Shown here: piece by piece, positions 2,614-30,826 of the stretch | Layout: each line of letters opens with the position of its first letter | Numbering within the stretch: position 1 is the stretch's first letter | UHGV virus genome: UHGV-0177136 | Reading direction: 5' to 3' (one strand) | DNA: 34,105 nucleotides | Source: a virus | The notes under the pieces: model-generated | The model's input: the letters and a program-made list of their open reading frames with translations, nothing else | Told to the model about the DNA's origin: nothing | The model's database searches: none | Program-made: the position numbers and the translations under genes

Positions 2614-3141
2614 TCAATGGGAATGGTGATTAGAGTTCTGACCATCAGCAAATATGTTACCCGTTGCATGGGCGCTTCCGTTGATTTCCAGATCACCATT
2701 GAGTGTCGCGGGGCCGTTGATCGTGGTAACTCCCGTGAGGTCGAGGTTTTTCCCTTTGAGAGAGATATCAGCGGCAACCTCCACCACGATACGCTCAATA
2801 CCTCCTCTGACCGTCAGCGTATGGGTCGCGCGGTTATAACTGAACTCCGCGCCATCAGCGTATTTCGTACCCCGGACGTTTTTATCACTGAACGGCGGTT
2901 TATCGACGTCTGAGTACACCGCGCCCAGAATAACACCATCCTCGCCGTTGGCATCGAGCAGCACCTCAACCTGCTCCCCCACGTCAGGGAGCCAGTAATC
3001 CTTGTTATCCTGGGTATTGCGCTGTAGCACGTTAAGCCAGTTTGTGCGCAGATTATCGCATTCAGGCAGACGAACGCGGGCCTGAACCCTGTCGGCATCA
3101 ACGGCACTGACCGTACCGATCTGACGGGTGACACCAGTCAT
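2614..3141 (-). CDS. baseplate spike protein, gpV-like
   Basis: 175-aa ORF with N-terminal OB-like region and Gly/Asn-rich C-terminus, downstream of the gpD-like gene. Confidence 0.75.
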   Translation of the reverse strand: MTGVTRQIGTVSAVDADRVQARVRLPECDNLRTNWLNVLQRNTQDNKDYWLPDVGEQVEVLLDANGEDGVILGAVYSDVDKPPFSDKNVRGTKYADGAEFSYNRATHTLTVRGGIERIVVEVAADISLKGKNLDLTGVTTINGPATLNGDLEINGSAHATGNIFADGQNSNHHSH

Positions 3142-4495: not shown

Positions 4496-5376
4496 ACACT
4501 CCTCGTCAGTATTCTGGCGGCCATTGCACTTAATCCCGGAGACATGCGGTTGAATGCTGTGCCGGCGGCGTTAAGCTGCCCGGAAACGGTATCCAGAGCA
4601 CCTGCAATATTTCTTTTGTCCACACCACTCAGCGCCGACTGCGCCTGCTGTACATACGTGGCTGCCTCACTGGCTGTTCTGGCCAGACTGATGGCATCGG
4701 GCATGGATTCAGAGAGTGCATTAAACGCCGGAACACTTTTCCCCAGAGCTCCGGATATATTACCCAGTCCGCTCATCAGTCCCGGCACACGGGTCAGCGC
4801 GACAACGGGGTTACCCTTCATTTTCTGCGCCACCCGAACGGCACTGATAGTGGTCTGGAGTACAGACTGCGCCTGTTTCGCATAGTTGACGCCGTTACGG
4901 ACGAACTGCGCCACCCCGGAAGGCGATGGAACAGCACCCGATACAGCTCCGGCACCGGGAACCTGCCTGCGTATTGCCGGCGGTTGCAGAGGATTTTTCG
5001 GGTCACCGGTGTATTCCCGGAGAGACACGGTGGCACTGACAACCAGCACGTTACCGGTGCTGTCTGTCTGCTCGCTGGTTGCGGTCACATCGGTAATCAC
5101 GAACCAGCCGCGATAGTCACCGTTGCCGAAGACCAGCGCCAGTGCCTGATGGGCCTTCATGGCTGTTCGCACTCTCGCCAGCTCCACGTCGGGCACACAA
5201 TAATGCTGATGGAAGACCAGGCTTATCTGGATTTCGTCCAGCCTGTCGCCGACAAACTGCAGGCCGGGTTTACCCTCGATGCGGGCATGCTCCGCATAAT
5301 CGACGCCGAACGTGGCCTCGAAGCCGTCCCAGTAGGTAATCAGTTCAAACTCAATATCACCCAGTACGGCAAACAT
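4492..5376 (-). CDS. tail protein, gpU / DNA-circularisation-protein-like
   Basis: 294-aa ORF immediately downstream of the tape measure gene; N-terminal region resembles P2 gpU-type tail proteins; C-terminal Ala/Ser/Gly-rich extension. Confidence 0.55.
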   Translation of the reverse strand: MFAVLGDIEFELITYWDGFEATFGVDYAEHARIEGKPGLQFVGDRLDEIQISLVFHQHYCVPDVELARVRTAMKAHQALALVFGNGDYRGWFVITDVTATSEQTDSTGNVLVVSATVSLREYTGDPKNPLQPPAIRRQVPGAGAVSGAVPSPSGVAQFVRNGVNYAKQAQSVLQTTISAVRVAQKMKGNPVVALTRVPGLMSGLGNISGALGKSVPAFNALSESMPDAISLARTASEAATYVQQAQSALSGVDKRNIAGALDTVSGQLNAAGTAFNRMSPGLSAMAARILTRSV

Positions 5377-7841
5377 CAGCTGTACTCCTTACGTTGTTTC
5401 TGAGCCAGCAGACGCTCCAGCATTTTTTCCAGCTCATGCAGGCTCATATTCAGGGCACCAGTCAGCCCGGCAGGCGCTGCGGTTTCCTTACCATTGAGGA
5501 AAAACTGAGGATTAAAGCTGACCTGGATACCGCCAGACGCTCCACCGCCAGTTGCAGTTGCGCCACGGCCTGAATATCCGGCAGCCATGATTTCCGGCGA
5601 CGGGATACGGGGAACATCCGGTGTCATTTCAGCGGCCAGGCGCTGCCCGGCCAGTGCAGCAAGCGGAGTGGTCCGTTGCAGGCCAATGGCGGCACCCTGC
5701 GCGATATTGTCACCAAAGCCCATAAACACGCGACTCGGTGAATGAATGCCCAGCTTTTCGCTGAACCAGTCACTGATGCTGTCACCCATTCCGGTTACGC
5801 TGGTTTTGAGTGACGCCCATTTGTTTCTGATGCCATTTATCAACCCGTCAATAAGATGACCACCGAAGTCGGTGAATTTCGCCGGCAGATCAACGCCGAG
5901 ATATTTCAGCGCAGCCGCAAAGGCTTTATAAAGCAGACCAGCCGGAGACCAGTTAACCAGCAGTTTACCAATTCCCACGATGCCGCCGTTAAAGGCTTCC
6001 TGAATGTCAGCCCAGCGCTGTTTAAACCAGCTACTGACTGCGCCCCAGTTGCGGTAGATAAGGTAAGCTGCTGCCGCGACGGCGGTGATAACGAGACCGA
6101 TGGGATTCATCAGCAGCGCCCGGCCAATCCAGAGAACGGCACGCCCGGCGTTCATAATTCCGCGAACCAGCCCCCCTGAGAGCACACCACCCAGTGTTCT
6201 GGCTCCTCTGGCGACAGCACCAAAGCCTGTCACCAGCCAGCGGAGTTTACCGCCTTCCCCCAGTGCGAGCGTCAGACGAAGCCAGTTGGCCCGAAGTAAA
6301 ACAGCATTTTTCCAGACGCTTACAAAGGGGGAAAGAAGGAGATTCAGCCCAAGCTTGAGACCGATAGTGGCCATCCTGAAAGCGAGTAATGCGCCCACAA
6401 CCTTTATGGTGCTGCTGACGAGCTGCGGATTTGCCGCTATCCATTTGCCAACACTGTCCATTAAAGGAATAAATGTTTCACCCAACTGGAGCAAAGCCGG
6501 ACGCAAGGATTGCCCGATGCTGATAGCAGAATCATTAAAGCCGATCTGCATTCTGCGCCAGCGACCTTCAAGCGTATCATTCTGCTTTGCAGCATCCTTA
6601 TCCAGGGTAGACATTGCTGCCGGAGCATTCATTTCCTGCTTACTGGAAAGGTATTTATCCCAGCCCTGTCGCATTGACAGTAAATGGTTGACAGTCTGAA
6701 TATCGGTAAAGACCTCAGCCAGACCAAATGACTCCATGAGTTTCTGCTGACCTTCCTGATCGCCTCTTGCTCCTGCAGCTTTCCATTGCTGCAAGAACGC
6801 TTTGCCTTTACTGTCGATAAAACGGTTGGCAATCATCAGTGAAGCTTCGTACTGCGAAAAACCCTGAGCGACGTAATTCTGCATTGACCCCTGGTAATCC
6901 ACCCCGGCTTTAGCATATTTCTGGATGGTATCTCCGCGGCCCATTGCTGCCAGCCAGTTGGACATATTGGTGACCGCTTCCTCTGCAGAGCCACTACCTT
7001 TACCGACCTCCAGACTGGCAACAATCTGGGTAATCGCATCTTTTCCATAAATACCACGAGCAGCGAAGGCTTTAGCCATACCGGGTAATGCTTTTGCCAT
7101 ATCCTTCAGCTCAAATGACCCAAGTTTGGCTCCTGTTGCCGCAATACCAAACGCCTGTTCAAGTTCTTTCGCATCAGTGATTCTGAGTGCATCGCTGAAG
7201 GCATAAGTCATTTTGGCAAGGTCGGTCATATCGGCTTTGGTTGCTGTAGCGGTCTTTCCAAGCATCTCTGCAAACGTTGCTGCCCGTTCGGGGGCCATAC
7301 CATCAGCAACTAATTGTCCGACTCCCCCTAACAGAGACTCCTGCAGTTGGTTAACCTTCAGCGAGGCCTGTTTGATAGCCTGGCCAATTGCACGTTCCTG
7401 TTTTGCATCCAGGTCTCCTGTGACACTGATATCCCGCAACTGTGATTCAAACGAGGCATATTGTTTAACCGAGGCCATGACCGGTGCGCCCAGCGTTCTG
7501 CCAATAGCATAGGTTTCTGCACCCTGACCATAGAGCGCCAGGCGGTTAGCCTTCAACGCATCACCGATGGCTGATACTGCTGACAGACGGCGCTGCTGAC
7601 GTTCAATTTGCTCCATGGTGCGGCTTACCCGCAGCAGCTCGCTGTTGAGATGCTGCATCCGGGAAGAACCCAGTTGACCATAACGTTCTGTTGCACGGGT
7701 TAAAGCGTTCTGACGTTCCTGCAGGCGGCGTGAGGTATCGCTCAGGGAATCAAGCGCACGGCGGGTACCGCTCATTGCAGAACGGAATGTGCTGCCAACC
7801 ATCCCGCCGATAACAACGCCGACTGAAAACTGTCCCGACAT
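5376..7841 (-). CDS. tail tape measure protein
   Basis: 821-aa ORF, largest in the tail module, downstream of the chaperone pair; Ala/Gly-rich with hydrophobic segments typical of tape measure proteins. Confidence 0.8.
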   Translation of the reverse strand: MSGQFSVGVVIGGMVGSTFRSAMSGTRRALDSLSDTSRRLQERQNALTRATERYGQLGSSRMQHLNSELLRVSRTMEQIERQQRRLSAVSAIGDALKANRLALYGQGAETYAIGRTLGAPVMASVKQYASFESQLRDISVTGDLDAKQERAIGQAIKQASLKVNQLQESLLGGVGQLVADGMAPERAATFAEMLGKTATATKADMTDLAKMTYAFSDALRITDAKELEQAFGIAATGAKLGSFELKDMAKALPGMAKAFAARGIYGKDAITQIVASLEVGKGSGSAEEAVTNMSNWLAAMGRGDTIQKYAKAGVDYQGSMQNYVAQGFSQYEASLMIANRFIDSKGKAFLQQWKAAGARGDQEGQQKLMESFGLAEVFTDIQTVNHLLSMRQGWDKYLSSKQEMNAPAAMSTLDKDAAKQNDTLEGRWRRMQIGFNDSAISIGQSLRPALLQLGETFIPLMDSVGKWIAANPQLVSSTIKVVGALLAFRMATIGLKLGLNLLLSPFVSVWKNAVLLRANWLRLTLALGEGGKLRWLVTGFGAVARGARTLGGVLSGGLVRGIMNAGRAVLWIGRALLMNPIGLVITAVAAAAYLIYRNWGAVSSWFKQRWADIQEAFNGGIVGIGKLLVNWSPAGLLYKAFAAALKYLGVDLPAKFTDFGGHLIDGLINGIRNKWASLKTSVTGMGDSISDWFSEKLGIHSPSRVFMGFGDNIAQGAAIGLQRTTPLAALAGQRLAAEMTPDVPRIPSPEIMAAGYSGRGATATGGGASGGIQVSFNPQFFLNGKETAAPAGLTGALNMSLHELEKMLERLLAQKQRKEYS

Positions 7842-21850: not shown

Positions 21851-21955
21851 CCATCGCCCCACAGGAATGCGCTGTGAGCCGACCAAGGTTCAGTCAGTCT
21901 CGCGCGACCACACTAGCCTGGCATATTTTTTATAATTGTAAAAGGCTTACAGATT

Positions 21956-22726
21956 ATGAAAATGCAGACATTACCCATCGTTCCATGGATTGGTGGCAAA
22001 CGCCGCCTTGCAAAACACATCCTGCCGCTGTTTCCGGCGCATGAATGTTATGTGGAGCCGTTTTGTGGGGCAGCAGCGCTCTATTTTCTTAAGGTACCCG
22101 GCAAGATCGAAGTCATTAATGATATCAACGGTGAGCTGGTGAACCTGTATCGGGTGGTAAAACATCATCTGGAAGAATTTGTACGCCAGTTCAAATGGGC
22201 GCTGGTCAGCCGGCAGATCTACAAATGGCTGCAGATCACCCCGGAAGAAACACTGACGGATATCCAGCGTGCAGCACGGTTCTACTACCTTCAGAAGCAG
22301 GCGTTTGGGGGCAAGGTGGCGGAGCACAGCTTTGGTACCTCCACCATATCCCCGCCACGCTTCAACCTGCTGCGTATTGAAGAAGAACTGTCAGCGGCAC
22401 ACCTGCGGCTTTCCAGAACGGTCATAGAACACATGGACTGGCAACAGTGCATAGAACGATATGATCGCCCGCATACGTTGTTCTACTGTGACCCTCCATA
22501 CTGGGGAACGGAAGGTTATGGTGTGGAGTTCGGACTAGAAAATTATGATCATATGGCAGATTTAGCACGCAGGATCAAAGGGAAGATGATTATATCGGTG
22601 AACGATATCCCGGAAATGCGGCAGGCATTCAACGGTCTAAATATTCAGTCGGTTGATATCAGCTACAACCTCAAGATCACTGGCAAATCCAGTCGCAAGA
22701 AGGAACTCATTATCCTCAACTTTTGA
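21956..22726 (+). CDS. DNA adenine methyltransferase, Dam/D12 family (no adjacent restriction enzyme gene seen)
   Basis: 256 aa; N-terminal WIGGKRRL SAM-binding-type motif and DPPY catalytic motif; TATAAT at 21931..21936 upstream. Confidence 0.85.
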   Translation: MKMQTLPIVPWIGGKRRLAKHILPLFPAHECYVEPFCGAAALYFLKVPGKIEVINDINGELVNLYRVVKHHLEEFVRQFKWALVSRQIYKWLQITPEETLTDIQRAARFYYLQKQAFGGKVAEHSFGTSTISPPRFNLLRIEEELSAAHLRLSRTVIEHMDWQQCIERYDRPHTLFYCDPPYWGTEGYGVEFGLENYDHMADLARRIKGKMIISVNDIPEMRQAFNGLNIQSVDISYNLKITGKSSRKKELIILNF

Positions 22727-23921
22727 CCGAATAGTAAGACTTCATGCAGTGAATCAAGTACTGCATGAAGTCAAGGGCTGGTTTTGTGTACCAAAAATAA
22801 ACAGTGATAGCGGTAATAATTCCCATAACTAGAACACCACGTATAATCCAGAACGTACGTTTCTGCGTGTCTAGTCGCGCAGAAATACTGCTAAATACAC
22901 CAGCCACGTCATCTTTAATGAAGGAATATTCCTTATTAATCTGTTTTTCTTTGTATTCAATTTCTTCGCCTAAGGCCTTTATAGATTGCATCTGGTTCGA
23001 AAGTGCCAGCCAGATTAACGTTGCAGCAAAAATGCATCCCAGAAGAATTATTGTGTTTGTTATCCCTTGGCCTGACCATTTCGTAGCCACTTTGAATTGG
23101 GTAGCTACGATAACAGAGGCAACAGGAATGCCAAGTATATGGTTCTGGATATCTGAAAACGCTTTGTGGATTTTACCCATTTCTTCGACTTTTGCAGCAC
23201 GCAGTTGATCCATTACTTTGTCATAAGAGAATCCAGAAGAGTAGATACGATACCCTTTCAGAAACTTTTCATGCAGACGCTGAATATTGTCCAGTAAATA
23301 AGCGAATACTAGAGGTGAATCAATTCCATCACTAACTGCTTGAATACTTTCAATCAGAATATCTAGCTTCTGATCCTTATGGGTATCATCATTGAAACAA
23401 GCTATAAGGTTATCAAGATACTCCCTTTGCAAATTTTGTACATTTTCTGCAGCGAAGTGCGGTAATAGCTTGATAACTTCTTTTTTCAGAAAAACTAACT
23501 GACAAGTTGAGTTATCAAAGTAGGCCGCGGCCTCTTTTAGCAGATTAACGAACTCGAGAATCTTCCGGTAGTTGCTGATGAAAACGGGGATATCTTCATC
23601 ATCATTACGAAATTTTGTTTCTAGGATGAAGTAATTAGCTGGCTCAAGGCACTGATGCTTTGGAGCATTTAGCAATTTTTCATGGGTGGAAAACACAAGT
23701 CCCAGTCCACTCCGTGGTGACGTCACACGTAGGATGATCGTGTTACCTGGAGCGATAGTGCCTGTATCAATAGAAAGACCATATTCACGAGGATCATCAA
23801 GCAAAGTATCAACCAGATCACAATCGGACTGATCTAAGAGCAACAGCGAACCGACACGAAACCCCTCTTGGAATTCCATACGACGATACAGAGCTGTCAG
23901 CATCTCAAATGAAATCGCCAC
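22716..23921 (-). CDS. protein of unknown function with two C-terminal transmembrane helices; candidate effector of a two-gene module
   Basis: 401 aa; start GTG 23921 two nt after the upstream stop, with GAGG inside the upstream gene end; TM helices at ITNTIILLGCIFAATLIWLAL and FWIIRGVLVMGIITAITVYFWY; N-terminal ~275 aa unrecognised; visibly AT-richer than flanking phage genes. Confidence 0.6.
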   Translation of the reverse strand: MAISFEMLTALYRRMEFQEGFRVGSLLLLDQSDCDLVDTLLDDPREYGLSIDTGTIAPGNTIILRVTSPRSGLGLVFSTHEKLLNAPKHQCLEPANYFILETKFRNDDEDIPVFISNYRKILEFVNLLKEAAAYFDNSTCQLVFLKKEVIKLLPHFAAENVQNLQREYLDNLIACFNDDTHKDQKLDILIESIQAVSDGIDSPLVFAYLLDNIQRLHEKFLKGYRIYSSGFSYDKVMDQLRAAKVEEMGKIHKAFSDIQNHILGIPVASVIVATQFKVATKWSGQGITNTIILLGCIFAATLIWLALSNQMQSIKALGEEIEYKEKQINKEYSFIKDDVAGVFSSISARLDTQKRTFWIIRGVLVMGIITAITVYFWYTKPALDFMQYLIHCMKSYYSVKS

Positions 23922-23923
23922 GA

Positions 23924-24931
23924 TTAAACCTCAGTCATCCACATTTCCCTAAATTCTTCAGGTACATTACGTAGGGTGATAATATTTGTTTCCGGATCAT
24001 AATCAATATAGCCTTCAGTTTTCCCTTCCCGGTCAAACTTAAGTTCCCAATATTTAGACTTGCCTTTAAAAGATACCAGAGCCCGAATGACTCGACCATC
24101 AGGAACGAAGCCATCCGATAACTCCAACTCTTCAGCAGCAAGTTTACCAGATAACTCCTCGGGAGCCTGGGGCCAAATGGCATTAACAAGGGTTTCAAGA
24201 CTAAGTGGTTCACCAGCCTTACTTAGTGCATGTAAGTGTTCAAACGCACTCTTAAGAAATGCATCTTTTTCAGCGCCGTCAAGTCCTTTCTCTGCCGCAA
24301 ATGCTTTTAAAACGTCACGTAACTTTTCAGACTCTCGTTTGGCGATTAAGACATCATTACAGCCTAGGAACTGTTTAAAATAGTTTGAAACATTACCTTG
24401 CCCCTTAAGAAAACTGATATAGCGCTCTGCGCCACTTTCCCACGCGGTTAAGTCAATGCGCCCAGCCATACGCAGCTTAGCAATATCAAGATAGGTACTA
24501 TCTTGGATGTTAAAATCATCTGTGACAGTGGACCCAATGGTAGCGCTTACAATAGCTATCAACAGGTGTTCATTGTGTCCTATCACGATATTTGCAAAAA
24601 GAACATAACCACCAGTAGCCATGTTTTCTCGCTGAGAACGTTCCGTCAGGTGATGCATCATTCGGCAGGAACTTTGGTAGAAATCATCAACACCTTCGAG
24701 AAAGTCCCCAGCCATTCGTTCCATAGGATAGTTATCCGTATCGCCTTCAAAATAGCCATAACCTTTACCTGTGCGTCCTGCATATTTTGCACAAATATCG
24801 TTTATAAGGCGCTGAGAGGCTTCAGTAACTAGACCTTCTTCAGGACTCAATCTCTCAGAAGCGTCTCCATTTTGTTGTTTGTCTAAAATGTGAACTACAA
24901 CGTGTTTAACTTCAATGGTCTGCTCAGACAT
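23924..24931 (-). CDS. NdpA/YejK-like (NA37 family) nucleoid-associated DNA-binding protein homolog
   Basis: 335 aa, the length I recall for E. coli YejK; segments such as GGYVLFANI, YLDIAKLRMAGRIDLTAWESGAERYISFLKG and the C-terminal YIDYDPETNIITL match my recollection of YejK ([54 protein letters not shown]). RBS AAGGTGG upstream. Confidence 0.6.
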   Translation of the reverse strand: MSEQTIEVKHVVVHILDKQQNGDASERLSPEEGLVTEASQRLINDICAKYAGRTGKGYGYFEGDTDNYPMERMAGDFLEGVDDFYQSSCRMMHHLTERSQRENMATGGYVLFANIVIGHNEHLLIAIVSATIGSTVTDDFNIQDSTYLDIAKLRMAGRIDLTAWESGAERYISFLKGQGNVSNYFKQFLGCNDVLIAKRESEKLRDVLKAFAAEKGLDGAEKDAFLKSAFEHLHALSKAGEPLSLETLVNAIWPQAPEELSGKLAAEELELSDGFVPDGRVIRALVSFKGKSKYWELKFDREGKTEGYIDYDPETNIITLRNVPEEFREMWMTEV

Positions 24932-25001
24932 TGGCTATCCACCTTATTTTTTATTGCTTAATGGCAAATAATTTCTGCTATATGTTCTCGTTAGGAACAC
25001 A

Positions 25002-25409
25002 TTAACCCACATTTTTTAACCGCTCAATCGTTGCGGATAATTCCTTCAGTTGTTTTTCCATCTCAATCACACGCTGTTTTTCTTCAGCGCCTCGCATGAG
25101 ATCTCGCCGAACCTCAGGATCTAACTGGTTTAGAAGTTCAAGCATTTTAAGGTCTGACGGGCTGAATTGATGTTGTGTTGGTACAGCAACAATTTCTTTA
25201 GATGGAATATGTTCTTTACCGGTAAGTAGCCAATCGATCGATACACCCAAATGGGTACTTAGCGCAACAAGAGCCTCTGCGTTTGGTTCTCTCTCTCCAC
25301 GCAAATAGTTTTGAAGTGAGCGATATGGAATTTTTGATAAGTCAGATAATGCCTTTATTGTCATGCCATTAGCATCCATCACTTCACGCAATCTCTCTTT
25401 TGTACTCAT
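25002..25409 (-). CDS. prophage repressor, HTH XRE-type
   Basis: Likely start ATG 25409 (MSTKERLREVMDANGMTIKALSDLSKIPYRSLQNYLRGEREPN...; track start 25505 is a TTG inside the operator region); divergent from the ner-like gene. Confidence 0.7.
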   Translation of the reverse strand: MSTKERLREVMDANGMTIKALSDLSKIPYRSLQNYLRGEREPNAEALVALSTHLGVSIDWLLTGKEHIPSKEIVAVPTQHQFSPSDLKMLELLNQLDPEVRRDLMRGAEEKQRVIEMEKQLKELSATIERLKNVG

Positions 25410-25425
25410 TTGAACATATCTCAAT

Positions 25426-25453
25426 TTGACACACTCATTTGGGTGTGTACAAT
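25426..25453 (+). promoter_or_regulatory. sigma70-like early promoter (TTGACA-16 nt-TACAAT) with an ACACAC/GTGTGT inverted repeat in the spacer
   Basis: TTGACA at 25426..25431 and TACAAT at 25448..25453; inverted repeat 25429..25434 / 25443..25448; about 45 nt upstream of the ner-like ATG. Confidence 0.5.
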
Positions 25454-25491
25454 AGACCCAATAGAGTACATCATAACCTAACAAGAACACG

Positions 25492-25722
25492 GTGCATATG
25501 AACAAACAACAAGTTCGGGCACGGCTGGTTGAACGAGGCAGTAGCTTGCGCCAGTTCGCGCTTAACGCGGGCTATGAACCACGAACAGTCACCCAGGCAG
25601 TCAGTCGCTGGGCTGGTAAAAGTGAACTACCTCGCGGTCGTTTGACTTATCGGATTTTGCGAGATCTATCGGTTGCAATAGGTAAAGAAGTTACCCCCGG
25701 TATCCTTAAGGAGGCGTCATGA
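25492..25722 (+). CDS. ner: Ner-like DNA-binding regulator
   Basis: Track start is GTG 25492; probable ATG at 25498 (MNKQQVRARLVERGSSLRQFALNAGY...); small HTH protein divergent from the repressor and first gene of the early operon, as in Mu. Confidence 0.6.
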   Translation: MHMNKQQVRARLVERGSSLRQFALNAGYEPRTVTQAVSRWAGKSELPRGRLTYRILRDLSVAIGKEVTPGILKEAS

Positions 25723-26952: not shown

Positions 26953-28722
26953 ATGAATGCTGCCCTGACTGAACGACTGGTTTATGTCGCCCGCGCGGCA
27001 CGTGACGCGGGGCATGGTAAACGCGGTGCAATATACGACGCTGCCTGTGCTGAACTTGGCATGTCCCGCGCCACTCTGCTGCGCAGGCTGAAGGAGGTCT
27101 CTGTGACTGATAAACGCAAAAAACGCGCCGATGCCGGGCGCAGCGCCCTGACCCGCGACGAAGCCGCGCTGATATCTGCCACACTGCGTGAGGCCACCCG
27201 CAAGAACGGTAAGCGTCTCTATTCCATCGCGGATGCAGTGGAAACCCTGCGGGCTAACGGCTTTATCTCCGCAGGCAGAACAGATGAAACCACCGGTGAG
27301 TTTTTCCCGTTGTCCGAAGATGCCATCAGCCGTGCCCTGCGTAACTATGGCCTGCACCCGGAACAACTGGATGCCCCTGCACCACATACTGAAGTGGCCA
27401 GTCTGCATCCCAATCATGTCTGGCAGATTGATGCCTCGCTCTGCACGCTTTACTACCTGAGCAATGGACATAAAGGGCTGCAGGTGATGGACAGCGCGAA
27501 GTTCTACAAGAACAAGCCCGCTAACCTTGCCCGTATCGCCAGTGACCGCGTGTGGAGTTACGAGATTACCGACCATGCCAGCGGCTGGATTTACGTTGAG
27601 TATGTGACGGGGGCGGAATCCGGTGAGAACCTGTGTTCTGTGCTTATCAACGCCATGCAGGAGCGTGGCGGCGCAGACGTGTTGCACGGTGTGCCGAAAA
27701 TACTCTATCTCGACCCCGGCTCGGCAAACACCGCGGGTATGACGAAAAACATGTGTCGCTCACTGGGCATTGACCTGATAGCGCACAAGCCGCATAACGC
27801 CCGCGCCACCGGACAGGTGGAAAAGGCGCGTGACATTATCGAACGCAAGCTGGAGCCGGGTCTGAAGTTCCGGCCGGTTCACAGTCTGGAAGAACTCAAC
27901 GCGCTGGCCGCGAAATGGCGCAGCCACTTTAACGCCACGGCTGTTCACAGCCGCCACGGTAAAACCCGCACGGATATCTGGCTGAAGATTACTGCTGAGC
28001 AGCTGAAAAAAGCGCCTTCCGTTGAGGTATGTCGTGAACTGGCTGTGGCGGCACCAGAACTCCGCAAAGTCACGCCAAAACTTCGTGTCTCGTTCCGGGG
28101 CACTGAATTTGACGTATCAACGGTACCGGGCGTACTGGTCGGTGAAAAACTGATGATTACCCGTAACCCGTGGCGCAGCGATGTGGCACAGGTGGTTCTG
28201 ACCGGTGAGGACGGCCACGAGACGTTCTTCCTGGTCGAAGAGGTCAGAAAGAACGAGTTTGGCTTTGCTGAAGGCGCGGCGGTATTTGGCGAAAGTTACA
28301 AAGCCCTGCCGGAAACCCCGGCGCAGATGGCGGCAAAAGAAACCGAAGAGCTGGTCACCGGTACAGACAACGCCGCAGATGCAGCTGCCGCACGCAAGGC
28401 GAAGGCGCTGCCGTTCGGCGGGCGGCTTGACCCGTATAAACATATTGATGACGCCACACTTCCGGCCTACATGCCGAAGCGCGGTCAGGCCTCTGACGTA
28501 CGCGGGCCGCGCACTGAACAACGTCCCATGACTCATGTGGAGGCCGCGAAAGCCCTGCGCGATAAGTTCAGCGCCGACGGCCTTACCTGGACGCCGGAAC
28601 ATTACCGCCAGTTAACGGCACAGTACCCGGACGGCGTACCGGAAGCTGCACTGGATGAAGTCATGGCCACGCTGACCACGCCGGCACGCAGCAGTGTTAT
28701 CAGCATTGTTAACGGCAACTGA
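26953..28722 (+). CDS. DDE transposase, Mu A-like
   Basis: 589 aa; N-terminal HTH-like region then integrase-core-like segment with candidate catalytic residues (WQIDAS, YLDPGS, downstream E); followed by the ATPase partner. Confidence 0.8.
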   Translation: MNAALTERLVYVARAARDAGHGKRGAIYDAACAELGMSRATLLRRLKEVSVTDKRKKRADAGRSALTRDEAALISATLREATRKNGKRLYSIADAVETLRANGFISAGRTDETTGEFFPLSEDAISRALRNYGLHPEQLDAPAPHTEVASLHPNHVWQIDASLCTLYYLSNGHKGLQVMDSAKFYKNKPANLARIASDRVWSYEITDHASGWIYVEYVTGAESGENLCSVLINAMQERGGADVLHGVPKILYLDPGSANTAGMTKNMCRSLGIDLIAHKPHNARATGQVEKARDIIERKLEPGLKFRPVHSLEELNALAAKWRSHFNATAVHSRHGKTRTDIWLKITAEQLKKAPSVEVCRELAVAAPELRKVTPKLRVSFRGTEFDVSTVPGVLVGEKLMITRNPWRSDVAQVVLTGEDGHETFFLVEEVRKNEFGFAEGAAVFGESYKALPETPAQMAAKETEELVTGTDNAADAAAARKAKALPFGGRLDPYKHIDDATLPAYMPKRGQASDVRGPRTEQRPMTHVEAAKALRDKFSADGLTWTPEHYRQLTAQYPDGVPEAALDEVMATLTTPARSSVISIVNGN

Positions 28723-28732
28723 GGAGGAAAAC

Positions 28733-29899
28733 ATGCTGGTACTGAAGCAGCAACTGAAAGAGGCCCGTATCTCACAGGCGGTGGTGGCGAGAGCTGTCGA
28801 TGTTTCTGAGGCCACGCTGGCCCAGATTGTGAATCATAACGCGTGGCCCCGCACCCGCCCCGGAGAAGTGCGCCGGCGTCTTGCGTCCTGGCTGGAAAGT
28901 CAGGGGATTGATACAACGAAGAGTTTTGATGCTGTACAGGGCGCGGCCACGCCCCGTACAGCGGGTACCACAGATAAAACGAGCCTCAGTGAGGAAGAGA
29001 ATATGTTACTCAAAAAACAGGTGTTATTTCCAGCAACCAAAAAAGCGTTTGGTCTTTTCCGTGACCCGTTCGCCGACGAAGCCATGCAGGGTTCTGATGA
29101 TGTGTTCACCACCCCGGACATCCGCTATGTGCGTGAGGCGCTGTACCAGACAGCCCGTCATGGTGGATTTATGGCCGTCATCGGTGAGTCCGGTGCGGGC
29201 AAATCCACGCTGCGCCGCGACCTGACTGAACGTATCAACCGCGAGAATGCGCCGGTAATTGTTATCGAGCCATACGTCATCGCTATGGAAGACAACGATG
29301 TGAAAGGGAAAACTCTGAAGGCAGCAGCGATTGCCGAAGCCATTATCAGTACCATCGCACCACTGGAAAGCATCAGACGCAGTCAGGACGCCCGCTTTCG
29401 CCAGTTGCATCGCGTCCTGAAAGACAGCAGCCAGGCGGGGTTCAGCCACGTTCTGGTGATTGAGGAGGCTCACAGTCTGCCCATTCCGACACTGAAACAC
29501 CTCAAACGCTTTTTTGAGCTGGAGTCCGGTTTCAAAAAGCTGCTGTCCATCATGCTGATTGGCCAGCCGGAACTGGCGACAAAACTGTCTGAACGCAACA
29601 TGGAAGTCCGCGAAGTCGTTCAGCGCTGTGAGGTGGTCGAACTTCTGCCTCTGGACAATCACCTTGAAGAATTTCTGACGTTCAAACTGCAACGGGCCGG
29701 TAAACAACTGACGGACATTATGGACGCCAGCGCAGTGGATGCCATACGTACCCGCCTGAGCAATCCGGGAAGTCATCGTAAAAATATGGTCAGCCTGCTG
29801 TATCCGCTGGCCGTCAGTAACCTGGTAATAGCCGCCATGAATCTGGCCGCTGAAATCGGGGTTCCACAGGTCAACGCTGACGTTGTCAAAGGGGTTTAA
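28733..29899 (+). CDS. transposition ATPase, MuB/TniB-like AAA+
   Basis: Start ATG 28733 after GAGGAGG (track ORF starts at an upstream GTG); N-terminal HTH-like segment; Walker A GESGAGKST; Walker B-like HVLVIEEAH. Confidence 0.8.
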   Translation: MLVLKQQLKEARISQAVVARAVDVSEATLAQIVNHNAWPRTRPGEVRRRLASWLESQGIDTTKSFDAVQGAATPRTAGTTDKTSLSEEENMLLKKQVLFPATKKAFGLFRDPFADEAMQGSDDVFTTPDIRYVREALYQTARHGGFMAVIGESGAGKSTLRRDLTERINRENAPVIVIEPYVIAMEDNDVKGKTLKAAAIAEAIISTIAPLESIRRSQDARFRQLHRVLKDSSQAGFSHVLVIEEAHSLPIPTLKHLKRFFELESGFKKLLSIMLIGQPELATKLSERNMEVREVVQRCEVVELLPLDNHLEEFLTFKLQRAGKQLTDIMDASAVDAIRTRLSNPGSHRKNMVSLLYPLAVSNLVIAAMNLAAEIGVPQVNADVVKGV

Positions 29900-29901
29900 T
29901 A

Positions 29902-30171
29902 ATGAAATCCACCACAGGTATCAACCAGCAAATCAGTAAAGTGCAGTCAGCCATTATGGCGCTTAAGGCGACGAACACGGATGTACAAAGCATCACCATC
30001 AGGGGTAACAAACCTGTCATCCGTGTTTCCAGGAGTGCGCATTGCATGCGCATGCTTGAGCAGGGAAAGGCCTGTTATCTGTATACCGGACATGACCACA
30101 GGGGATATTTCCGTCAGGGCGTTTTCGAACTGCACGGCTGTCGCGTCGTGTGGCCGGAATCTTTGTGGTAA
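29902..30171 (+). CDS. hypothetical protein
   Basis: 89-aa ORF tightly following the ATPase gene. Confidence 0.4.
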   Translation: MKSTTGINQQISKVQSAIMALKATNTDVQSITIRGNKPVIRVSRSAHCMRMLEQGKACYLYTGHDHRGYFRQGVFELHGCRVVWPESLW

Positions 30172-30198: not shown

Positions 30199-30729
30199 AT
30201 GGCAAAAAGTACAAAAGGTGCAAAACGTATCAAGGCCGCAGCAGCACTCTGGGTGCCGGGGACACGTGAAGAGGTCATTGAGGGCATCAGACTGCTCGGT
30301 GACGCACACCGTGAACTGGTCAGGGCTGAAACAGAAATGAATGACGCCATTGGCGATATCACCGCACGTTATGCCCCGCTCACCGAGAGCCTGAAAAAAC
30401 GCATGGCCGAACTGCAGTCCGGTATTCAGACATGGTGTGAGGCACACCGTGATGAACTGACCGGCAACGGGAAGGTGAAGTTTGCTAACCTCACCACCGG
30501 CGAGGTGCAGTGGTGAAACCGCCCGCCGTCAGTCAGCATTCGCGGAGCGGATAATGTTATTGAACTACTGAGACGTCTGGGGCTTGAGTGCTTTATTCGT
30601 GTAAAAGAGGAAATAAATAAAGACGCTATCCTGAATGAAAAAGAGGCCGTGAAAAATATTCCCGGTATTTCCATTAAAAGCGACATTGAGGATTTTTCAA
30701 TAATTCCTTTTGAGCAGGATGTGCAGTAA
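30199..30729 (+). pseudogene. gam: Mu Gam-like host-nuclease inhibitor interrupted by an in-frame TGA at 30514..30516
   Basis: Codons 1-105 (MAKSTKGAKRIKAAAALWVPGTREEVIEGIRLLGD...) match my recollection of Mu Gam. The same frame stays open after the TGA for 70 more codons (NRPPSVSIRGADNVIELLRRLGLECFIRVKEEINKDAILNEKEAVKNIPGISIKSDIEDFSIIPFEQDVQ) that match the Gam C-terminus; the TGA sits where Mu has Arg. Confidence 0.7.
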
Positions 30730-30826
30730 ACACACCACGTTAATTATTTAATAAAAACATTTTCTTTTTTATTCCGGCGTCAGCGCCGTGGGCTTCTGCA
30801 CGCCGGAAACAGAGGAGAATTAAATT

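Follow-up and report, generated by a model that had tools for sequence, protein, structure and literature searches.

The gam gene of phage Mu lies in the 'semi-essential' (SE) early region of the genome (PMC3325207). This region has been deleted in a replication-defective MuBam phage, which nonetheless could be prepared and used for infection (PMC3325207; PMC3820752). Pseudomonas aeruginosa phage JBD30 carries a GamMu homolog (gp13) that sensitises the phage to Gabija (PMC12407980, a 2025 preprint), and a natural Gam substitution of the phage F8 family, L73R, leads to escape from Gabija (PMC12407980). We describe here a gam homolog interrupted by an in-frame TGA codon in a stretch of 34,105 nucleotides of the UHGV virus genome UHGV-0177136, designated the window throughout. 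The reading that we favour, with a probability of roughly 85%, is that of a genuine nonsense gam allele of a BcepMu-like E. coli prophage, fixed in one clonal lineage and leading to loss of function.

The window covers almost the whole of a BcepMu-like transposable prophage of E. coli. Prophages of this family are present in 624 out of 5426 complete E. coli genomes. Among named phages, Escherichia phage PhiKM (Bcepmuvirus) comes closest, being 98% identical in the gam region. The late genes (terminase, portal, head, sheath, tube and baseplate) occupy positions ~500 to 21700 on the minus strand, followed by the repressor and accessory region (~21900-25500) and by the early operon, which extends on the plus strand from ~25700 as far as the end of the window. 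The early operon codes successively for a DUF3102 protein, the DDE transposase (26953-28722, plus strand), a MuB-like AAA+ protein (28733-29899, plus strand), an 89-aa ORF (29902-30171, plus strand), gam, several small ORFs, a DUF2786 protein, gemA and mor. The position of gam 3′ of the transposase and MuB-like genes is the one expected for a member of the Gam family. The three genes preceding gam are intact as assessed by their ORFs, by the annotation of relatives and by full-length, stop-free tblastn matches. A tblastn comparison of 45 proteins of the F1140 prophage, itself apparently intact, with the window revealed an internal stop in gam alone, the other 44 being stop-free, 42 of them aligning essentially over their full length. 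The exceptions are the tape-measure protein (756 of 896 residues aligned at 60% identity) and the tail fibre, which is cut by the window start.

Three other features of the window deserve mention. The tape-measure (5376-7841) and baseplate V (2614-3141) genes, both on the minus strand, show 60% and 70% identity, respectively, to their F1140 counterparts amid neighbours that are 95-100% identical, a pattern that we read as module exchange in the tail region relative to the F1140 prophage. The accessory region next to the repressor is variable and codes for a Dam-like D12 methyltransferase (21956-22726), a 401-aa protein (22716-23921, minus strand) whose only PADLOC match, to KwaA, is weak, and an NA37/YejK-type nucleoid-associated protein (23924-24931, minus strand), and is followed by the CI-like repressor (25005-25505, minus strand). 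At an identity of 99.5% or more, this cassette (21956-25505) is found as a whole in only 19 of the 5426 complete E. coli genomes; it may be a prophage-borne defence or moron module. Between gam and the next gene there is a 9-bp inverted repeat, TTCCGGCGT ... ACGCCGGAA, with a 19-nt spacer (30772-30808). A T-run is found before the repeat and not after it, which does not make a canonical terminator on either strand. The right arm carries a C to T change at position 30804 in the sister lineage described below.

The gam locus spans positions 30199-30729 of the plus strand. The reading frame starts with ATG at 30199 and has 105 sense codons up to the TGA at 30514-30516 (ORF 30199..30516), exactly as the sequence-only reading had described it and as confirmed by sequence, translation and Pfam. 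Beyond this stop the same frame continues with 70 stop-free codons (30517..30729), the former codons 107-176, until the original TAA at 30727-30729. This remnant, now untranslated, differs at the protein level from the intact F1140 copy exclusively by an R131C change and has eight synonymous DNA differences to it. The probability of finding 70 open codons by chance is, by our own arithmetic, (61/64)^70, about 0.035. The first 105 residues match positions 1-82 of the Pfam profile Phage_Mu_Gam (PF07352; E-value 1.6e-19, 70.8 bits) and the 70 residues encoded beyond the stop match positions 85-148 (E-value 2.3e-12, 47.6 bits), so that the Gam likeness proposed initially for the downstream codons is upheld. 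The two halves are thus recognised separately and in collinear order, while the joined protein with the arginine restored scores 135.8 bits over positions 1-148 of the 149 in the profile; all three values are above the PF07352 cut-off of 28.3 bits. Because both halves match the profile, the downstream frame is, as judged by this comparison, explained by homology and not by a chance open frame. The uninterrupted frame of ~170-176 codons characteristic of the Gam family is broken here by the TGA at codon 106. On these sequence grounds the window gam belongs to the Gam family by its ancestry and is a pseudogene in its present state, and the 105-aa fragment is the sole product expected from it in quantity.

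The codon that preceded the stop could be assigned with precision. An uninterrupted gam of 531 nt with CGA at codon 106 is present in seven out of seven relatives (F1140, IAI39, PhiKM, MS1657, CUVET21-PYO5, A20 and A24). The 35 IMG/VR contigs that carry the surrounding 20-mer all have C, and never T, at the mutated base. The TGA allele is also absent among the 604 complete E. coli genomes that match 131 nt around the stop, the best of which has 97.7% identity over this stretch, corresponding to three mismatches. Conservation of the related prophages is therefore of the CGA codon, found in every relative examined, and not of the TGA. At the protein level, Arg106 is invariant in 30 diverse Gam homologs (55-78% identity), and the same column has Arg in five and Lys in one of the members of a six-homolog phage protein alignment. 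The stop also aligns with an arginine of phage Mu Gam (GDVSW-R-VRPPSV). Codon 106 is the sole CGA codon of gam. The nonsense change is, according to these alignments, one transition from CGA (Arg106) to TGA caused by C to T at position 30514, as had been supposed from the window by itself.

The premature stop is found well beyond the window. In a large protein collection the exact 105-aa protein is encoded by about 12-15 public contigs (ENA and Logan assemblies). The codon is covered by seven contigs from as many run or assembly accessions (ERZ28622648, ERZ19650749, ERZ1034973, SRR7658679, ERZ28620656, ERZ27289119 and SRR7658665), which match the window at 100% identity over 1.0-6.3 kb and display three assembler naming styles, although several of them probably derive from one cohort. 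Judging by the label 'PASO19' and by the run numbers, several may belong to the Madagascar cohort of Pasolli et al. 2019 (PMC6349461). An ascertainment-free check was provided by the contigs that code for the exact MuB-like protein of the window: 11 out of 11 encode the adjoining 105-aa Gam. Neither the intact R106/C131 protein nor its W106/C131 version was found in a collection of 15 billion proteins, in which the three common intact Gam alleles are represented by 1000 contigs or more each. When GTDB genomes and JGI metagenomes were scanned for an exact 20-mer of the TGA allele, each gave one match (the Parasphingopyxis MAG L009 and L060, respectively); both have no similarity to the window and were discarded as chance matches. 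An eighth candidate contig (L017; ENA ERZ27257961 k141_193758), which has two mismatches to the window, was dropped from the set of TGA contigs as it ends exactly at window position 30513. The contig may have been broken there during assembly because strains vary at this site, in which case it would hint at the presence of gam+ and gam- phages together in that sample.

The nonsense change travels with one further private missense change, R131C, located 3′ of the stop (C to T at 30589, plus strand; CGC to TGC). Codon 131 is CGC in all relatives, including the otherwise identical alleles of a sister sub-lineage represented by two contigs: L045, an IMG/VR contig from an isolate genome (IMGVR_UViG_642979344_000011), and L061, a Logan contig (SRR31637084_88) seen in two samples. 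These two contigs hardly differ from one another. Compared with the window they show ~110 SNPs over 6-7 kb, but are almost identical to it between ~29588 and 30895. This segment includes the same rare gam DNA allele, with its C at position 30522, and both contigs have CGA at codon 106. The window gam has only two private changes relative to L045 and L061, the nonsense change and R131C; with one private missense and no private synonymous change, the events are too few to assess constraint 3′ of the stop. The allele itself is mosaic. Site-by-site comparison with the seven relatives assigns its ends to the F1140/IAI39 class and its centre (30483-30565, plus strand) to the MS1657 class, with seven synonymous MS1657-type variants clustered in the middle of gam. 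As the remainder of the gene and of the prophage is intact, the nonsense change is young in evolutionary terms. The initial description of the mutation as 'very recent' is correct in this sense, yet the change had time to become fixed in a clonal lineage that is found across several metagenome assemblies.

How the nonsense change would act can be described from the AlphaFold model of an intact homolog (P0016; mean pLDDT 86). The model has a disordered N-terminus, a long helix (residues 23-82) and a small alpha/beta domain made of strands 95-98, 101-107, 111-114, 157-160 and 164-170 and of helices 117-126, 141-146 and 148-151. The C-to-T change at the sole CGA codon converted the codon of the invariant Arg106 to TGA, and ribosomes stopping there would release a 105-residue fragment with the disordered N-terminus, the helix 23-82 and the first two beta-strands, the second of which would be two residues short. 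When projected onto the model, the fragment is devoid of the remaining three strands and of all short helices, i.e., of most of the alpha/beta domain. With this C-terminal domain mostly missing, the fragment is very probably unable to act as the dimeric Gam that binds DNA ends and blocks RecBCD. We infer loss of function from a monomer model combined with sequence conservation, and the proposal that truncation would inactivate Gam is plausible from this model. The importance attributed to that loss for the phage was overstated, considering that Mu gam is in a semi-essential region that can be deleted (PMC3325207).

The phage would be expected to tolerate the loss of gam, an accessory early gene. 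Since Mu gam belongs to the deletable semi-essential region, a null gam in an otherwise intact prophage would be unsurprising by analogy. Intact gam genes are nonetheless under strong purifying selection: the 19 distinct alleles analysed display 41 synonymous versus 7 non-synonymous segregating changes (pN/pS 0.05). An effect of the stop on expression of the downstream genes was also considered. The gam stretch left untranslated is G-rich and not C-rich (GC skew +0.16 to +0.39), which argues against a good rut site, and we would not expect strong Rho-dependent polarity on gemA and mor.

The alternative that survives best maintains that gam is null and adds that its loss was selected, either because in this host lineage Gam licenses a Gabija-type defence at RecBCD-shielded DNA ends or because its leaky expression from the prophage harms host break repair. 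We consider it unlikely. Its experimental basis is the sensitisation of JBD30 to Gabija by its Gam and the escape conferred by L73R (PMC12407980), the JBD30 Gam being 65.5% identical to the window Gam. Genomic support comes from the sister copies, each of which has its own gam lesion and no other indel over the 6-7 kb aligned. In L045, 1 nt is deleted at window position 30273 (codon 25; L045 position ~3515), whereas in L061 the loss of 11 nt at ~30496-30506 (codons 100-103; L061 position ~3298) yields a 114-aa product (P0002). Three different and independent lesions (R106*, -1 nt and -11 nt) are thus present in one gam allele group. Furthermore, two complete E. coli genomes have IS1 inserted near the gam 3′ end, after ~codon 164: AH21C062 (L004; NZ_CP196276.1, 2250-2947) and S10EC (NZ_CP076697.1), with a 172-aa fusion like P0017. 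A few other sporadic Gam truncations occur as single contigs.

The Gabija preprint and the three lesions on one allele make selection for gam loss a legitimate hypothesis. However, L061 was found via a cluster of truncated proteins, which makes its discovery biased, and L045 is a single contig whose 1-nt deletion could be a sequencing error. The strong family-wide conservation of gam noted above also speaks against adaptive loss, as does the fact that intact gam alleles vastly outnumber the broken ones. In addition, GemA, the second Gabija-licensing factor of JBD30, is intact in the window. The more specific proposal of a repeated adaptive loss of gam in one sub-group of E. coli BcepMu-like prophages, accounting for all three lesions on the rare allele, appears to us quite improbable. 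If it were correct, null gam alleles would be field-collected escape mutants in which RecBCD protection was traded for evasion of defence. They would then provide a natural counterpart to the licensing of Gabija by Mu-type Gam, or of another defence system that watches RecBCD access to DNA ends.

A second alternative considers that the UGA is read through, by leakage, by a programmed mechanism or by selenocysteine insertion, to give functional full-length Gam at a reduced and perhaps regulated level. The persistence of 70 open, Gam-like codons downstream of the stop is compatible with this possibility, and so is the A that follows the UGA, which as fourth base supports termination rather weakly. 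Read-through of UGA by tRNA-Trp reaches ~2% at 37 °C and 4% at 25 °C in E. coli K-12 reporters (PMC10570021). We nevertheless regard such a recoding as very unlikely. The stop is missing from every relative and is hence no conserved recoding site. TGA terminates 25 of the 41 window genes and is the commonest stop of the prophage, which eliminates an alternative genetic code; four of those genes end by TGAA, the same context as the gam stop. A phage-borne suppressor tRNA can be dismissed since there is no tRNA gene in the window. Selenocysteine insertion or a structured read-through element were rejected after the search for RNA features: the 81 nt around and after the stop have a minimum free energy of -20.5 kcal/mol versus a mean of -23.2 kcal/mol for shuffled sequences (z +0.79), and no family came near threshold in the Rfam scan. 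Read-through would also insert Trp at the position of an invariant Arg. Separate expression of the C-terminal part was rejected by inspection of the sequence, which has no in-frame ATG, GTG or TTG before codon 152 (two GTGs, at 30510 and 30513, lie in other frames). Partial read-through, one of the options put forward by the sequence-only reading, is accordingly disfavoured as a designed feature, while background leakage may generate a trace of full-length W106/C131 Gam.

It is also conceivable that the fragment, composed of the long helix and two strands, retains a function or has acquired one, such as that of a dimerising dominant-negative protein or of a partner-binding module. The helix 23-82 is confidently modelled and coincides with the region called the leucine zipper of Gam in PMC12407980. 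Against this idea, no relative encodes a conserved short form, the short proteins present in the sequence clusters are contig-end partials or sporadic lesions, and nothing points to selection acting on the fragment; a function of this kind would be highly improbable. Finally, a sequencing or assembly error concealing an intact gene with CGA has a negligible probability even if single-base differences are the commonest type of error, the window originates from metagenome-type data and L017 stops at the base before the TGA: the recurrence of T in seven identical contigs of seven accessions, its presence in all 11 contigs of the lineage defined by the MuB allele and the absence of 'repaired' proteins lead us to rule it out for practical purposes and to reject this option of the original interpretation.

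The nonsense allele of gam has little intrinsic importance as one more broken accessory gene of a prophage, a kind of event that is already known and that annotation pipelines would flag as a pseudogene. Its value is that of a clean and verified nonsense allele, maintained in several metagenome samples. The prophage, Mu-like and otherwise intact, is a naturally occurring gam-null variant that could be compared with its gam+ relatives if an isolate is found. A possible lead is whether end-binding anti-RecBCD proteins are counter-selected in hosts with a Gabija-type defence.

Among the described systems, Mu Gam, a host-nuclease inhibitor, shares ~60% amino-acid identity with the window protein over residues 6-174, has a similar length (174 versus 176 aa), features Arg at the mutated column and is encoded at the same place in the early operon, downstream of the transposase A and B genes. 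The window copy differs from it by the interruption at codon 106, and the genome that carries it is BcepMu-type, with divergent early and late arms, and not Mu-type. A putative Gam from Desulfovibrio vulgaris (PDB 2p2u) is a distant relative with 19% identity and a weak structural match over 78 residues. Gp13 of JBD30 and the related Gam proteins of Pseudomonas Mu-like phages belong to the same family at the level of identity given above. In one of these phages, D3112 (L056; AY394005.1, 289-1053), the gam CDS has 267 aa and its C-terminus diverges after ~residue 159, while the Gam of its close relatives JBD30 and MP42 matches to the end; this looks like a frameshift in the D3112 record or in the phage. 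Licensing of Gabija and escape by point mutation were shown for JBD30-type Gam (PMC12407980), whereas the Gam of the E. coli prophages is known here from sequence. The closest counterparts of the window gene are the intact gam genes of E. coli BcepMu-like prophages and PhiKM (PQ738613; WP_001140134 and WP_001140136), which are 98-99% identical to it in DNA sequence and found within the same gene order, but in which codons 106 and 131 are CGA and CGC, respectively, and the annotated products are full-length proteins of 176 aa.
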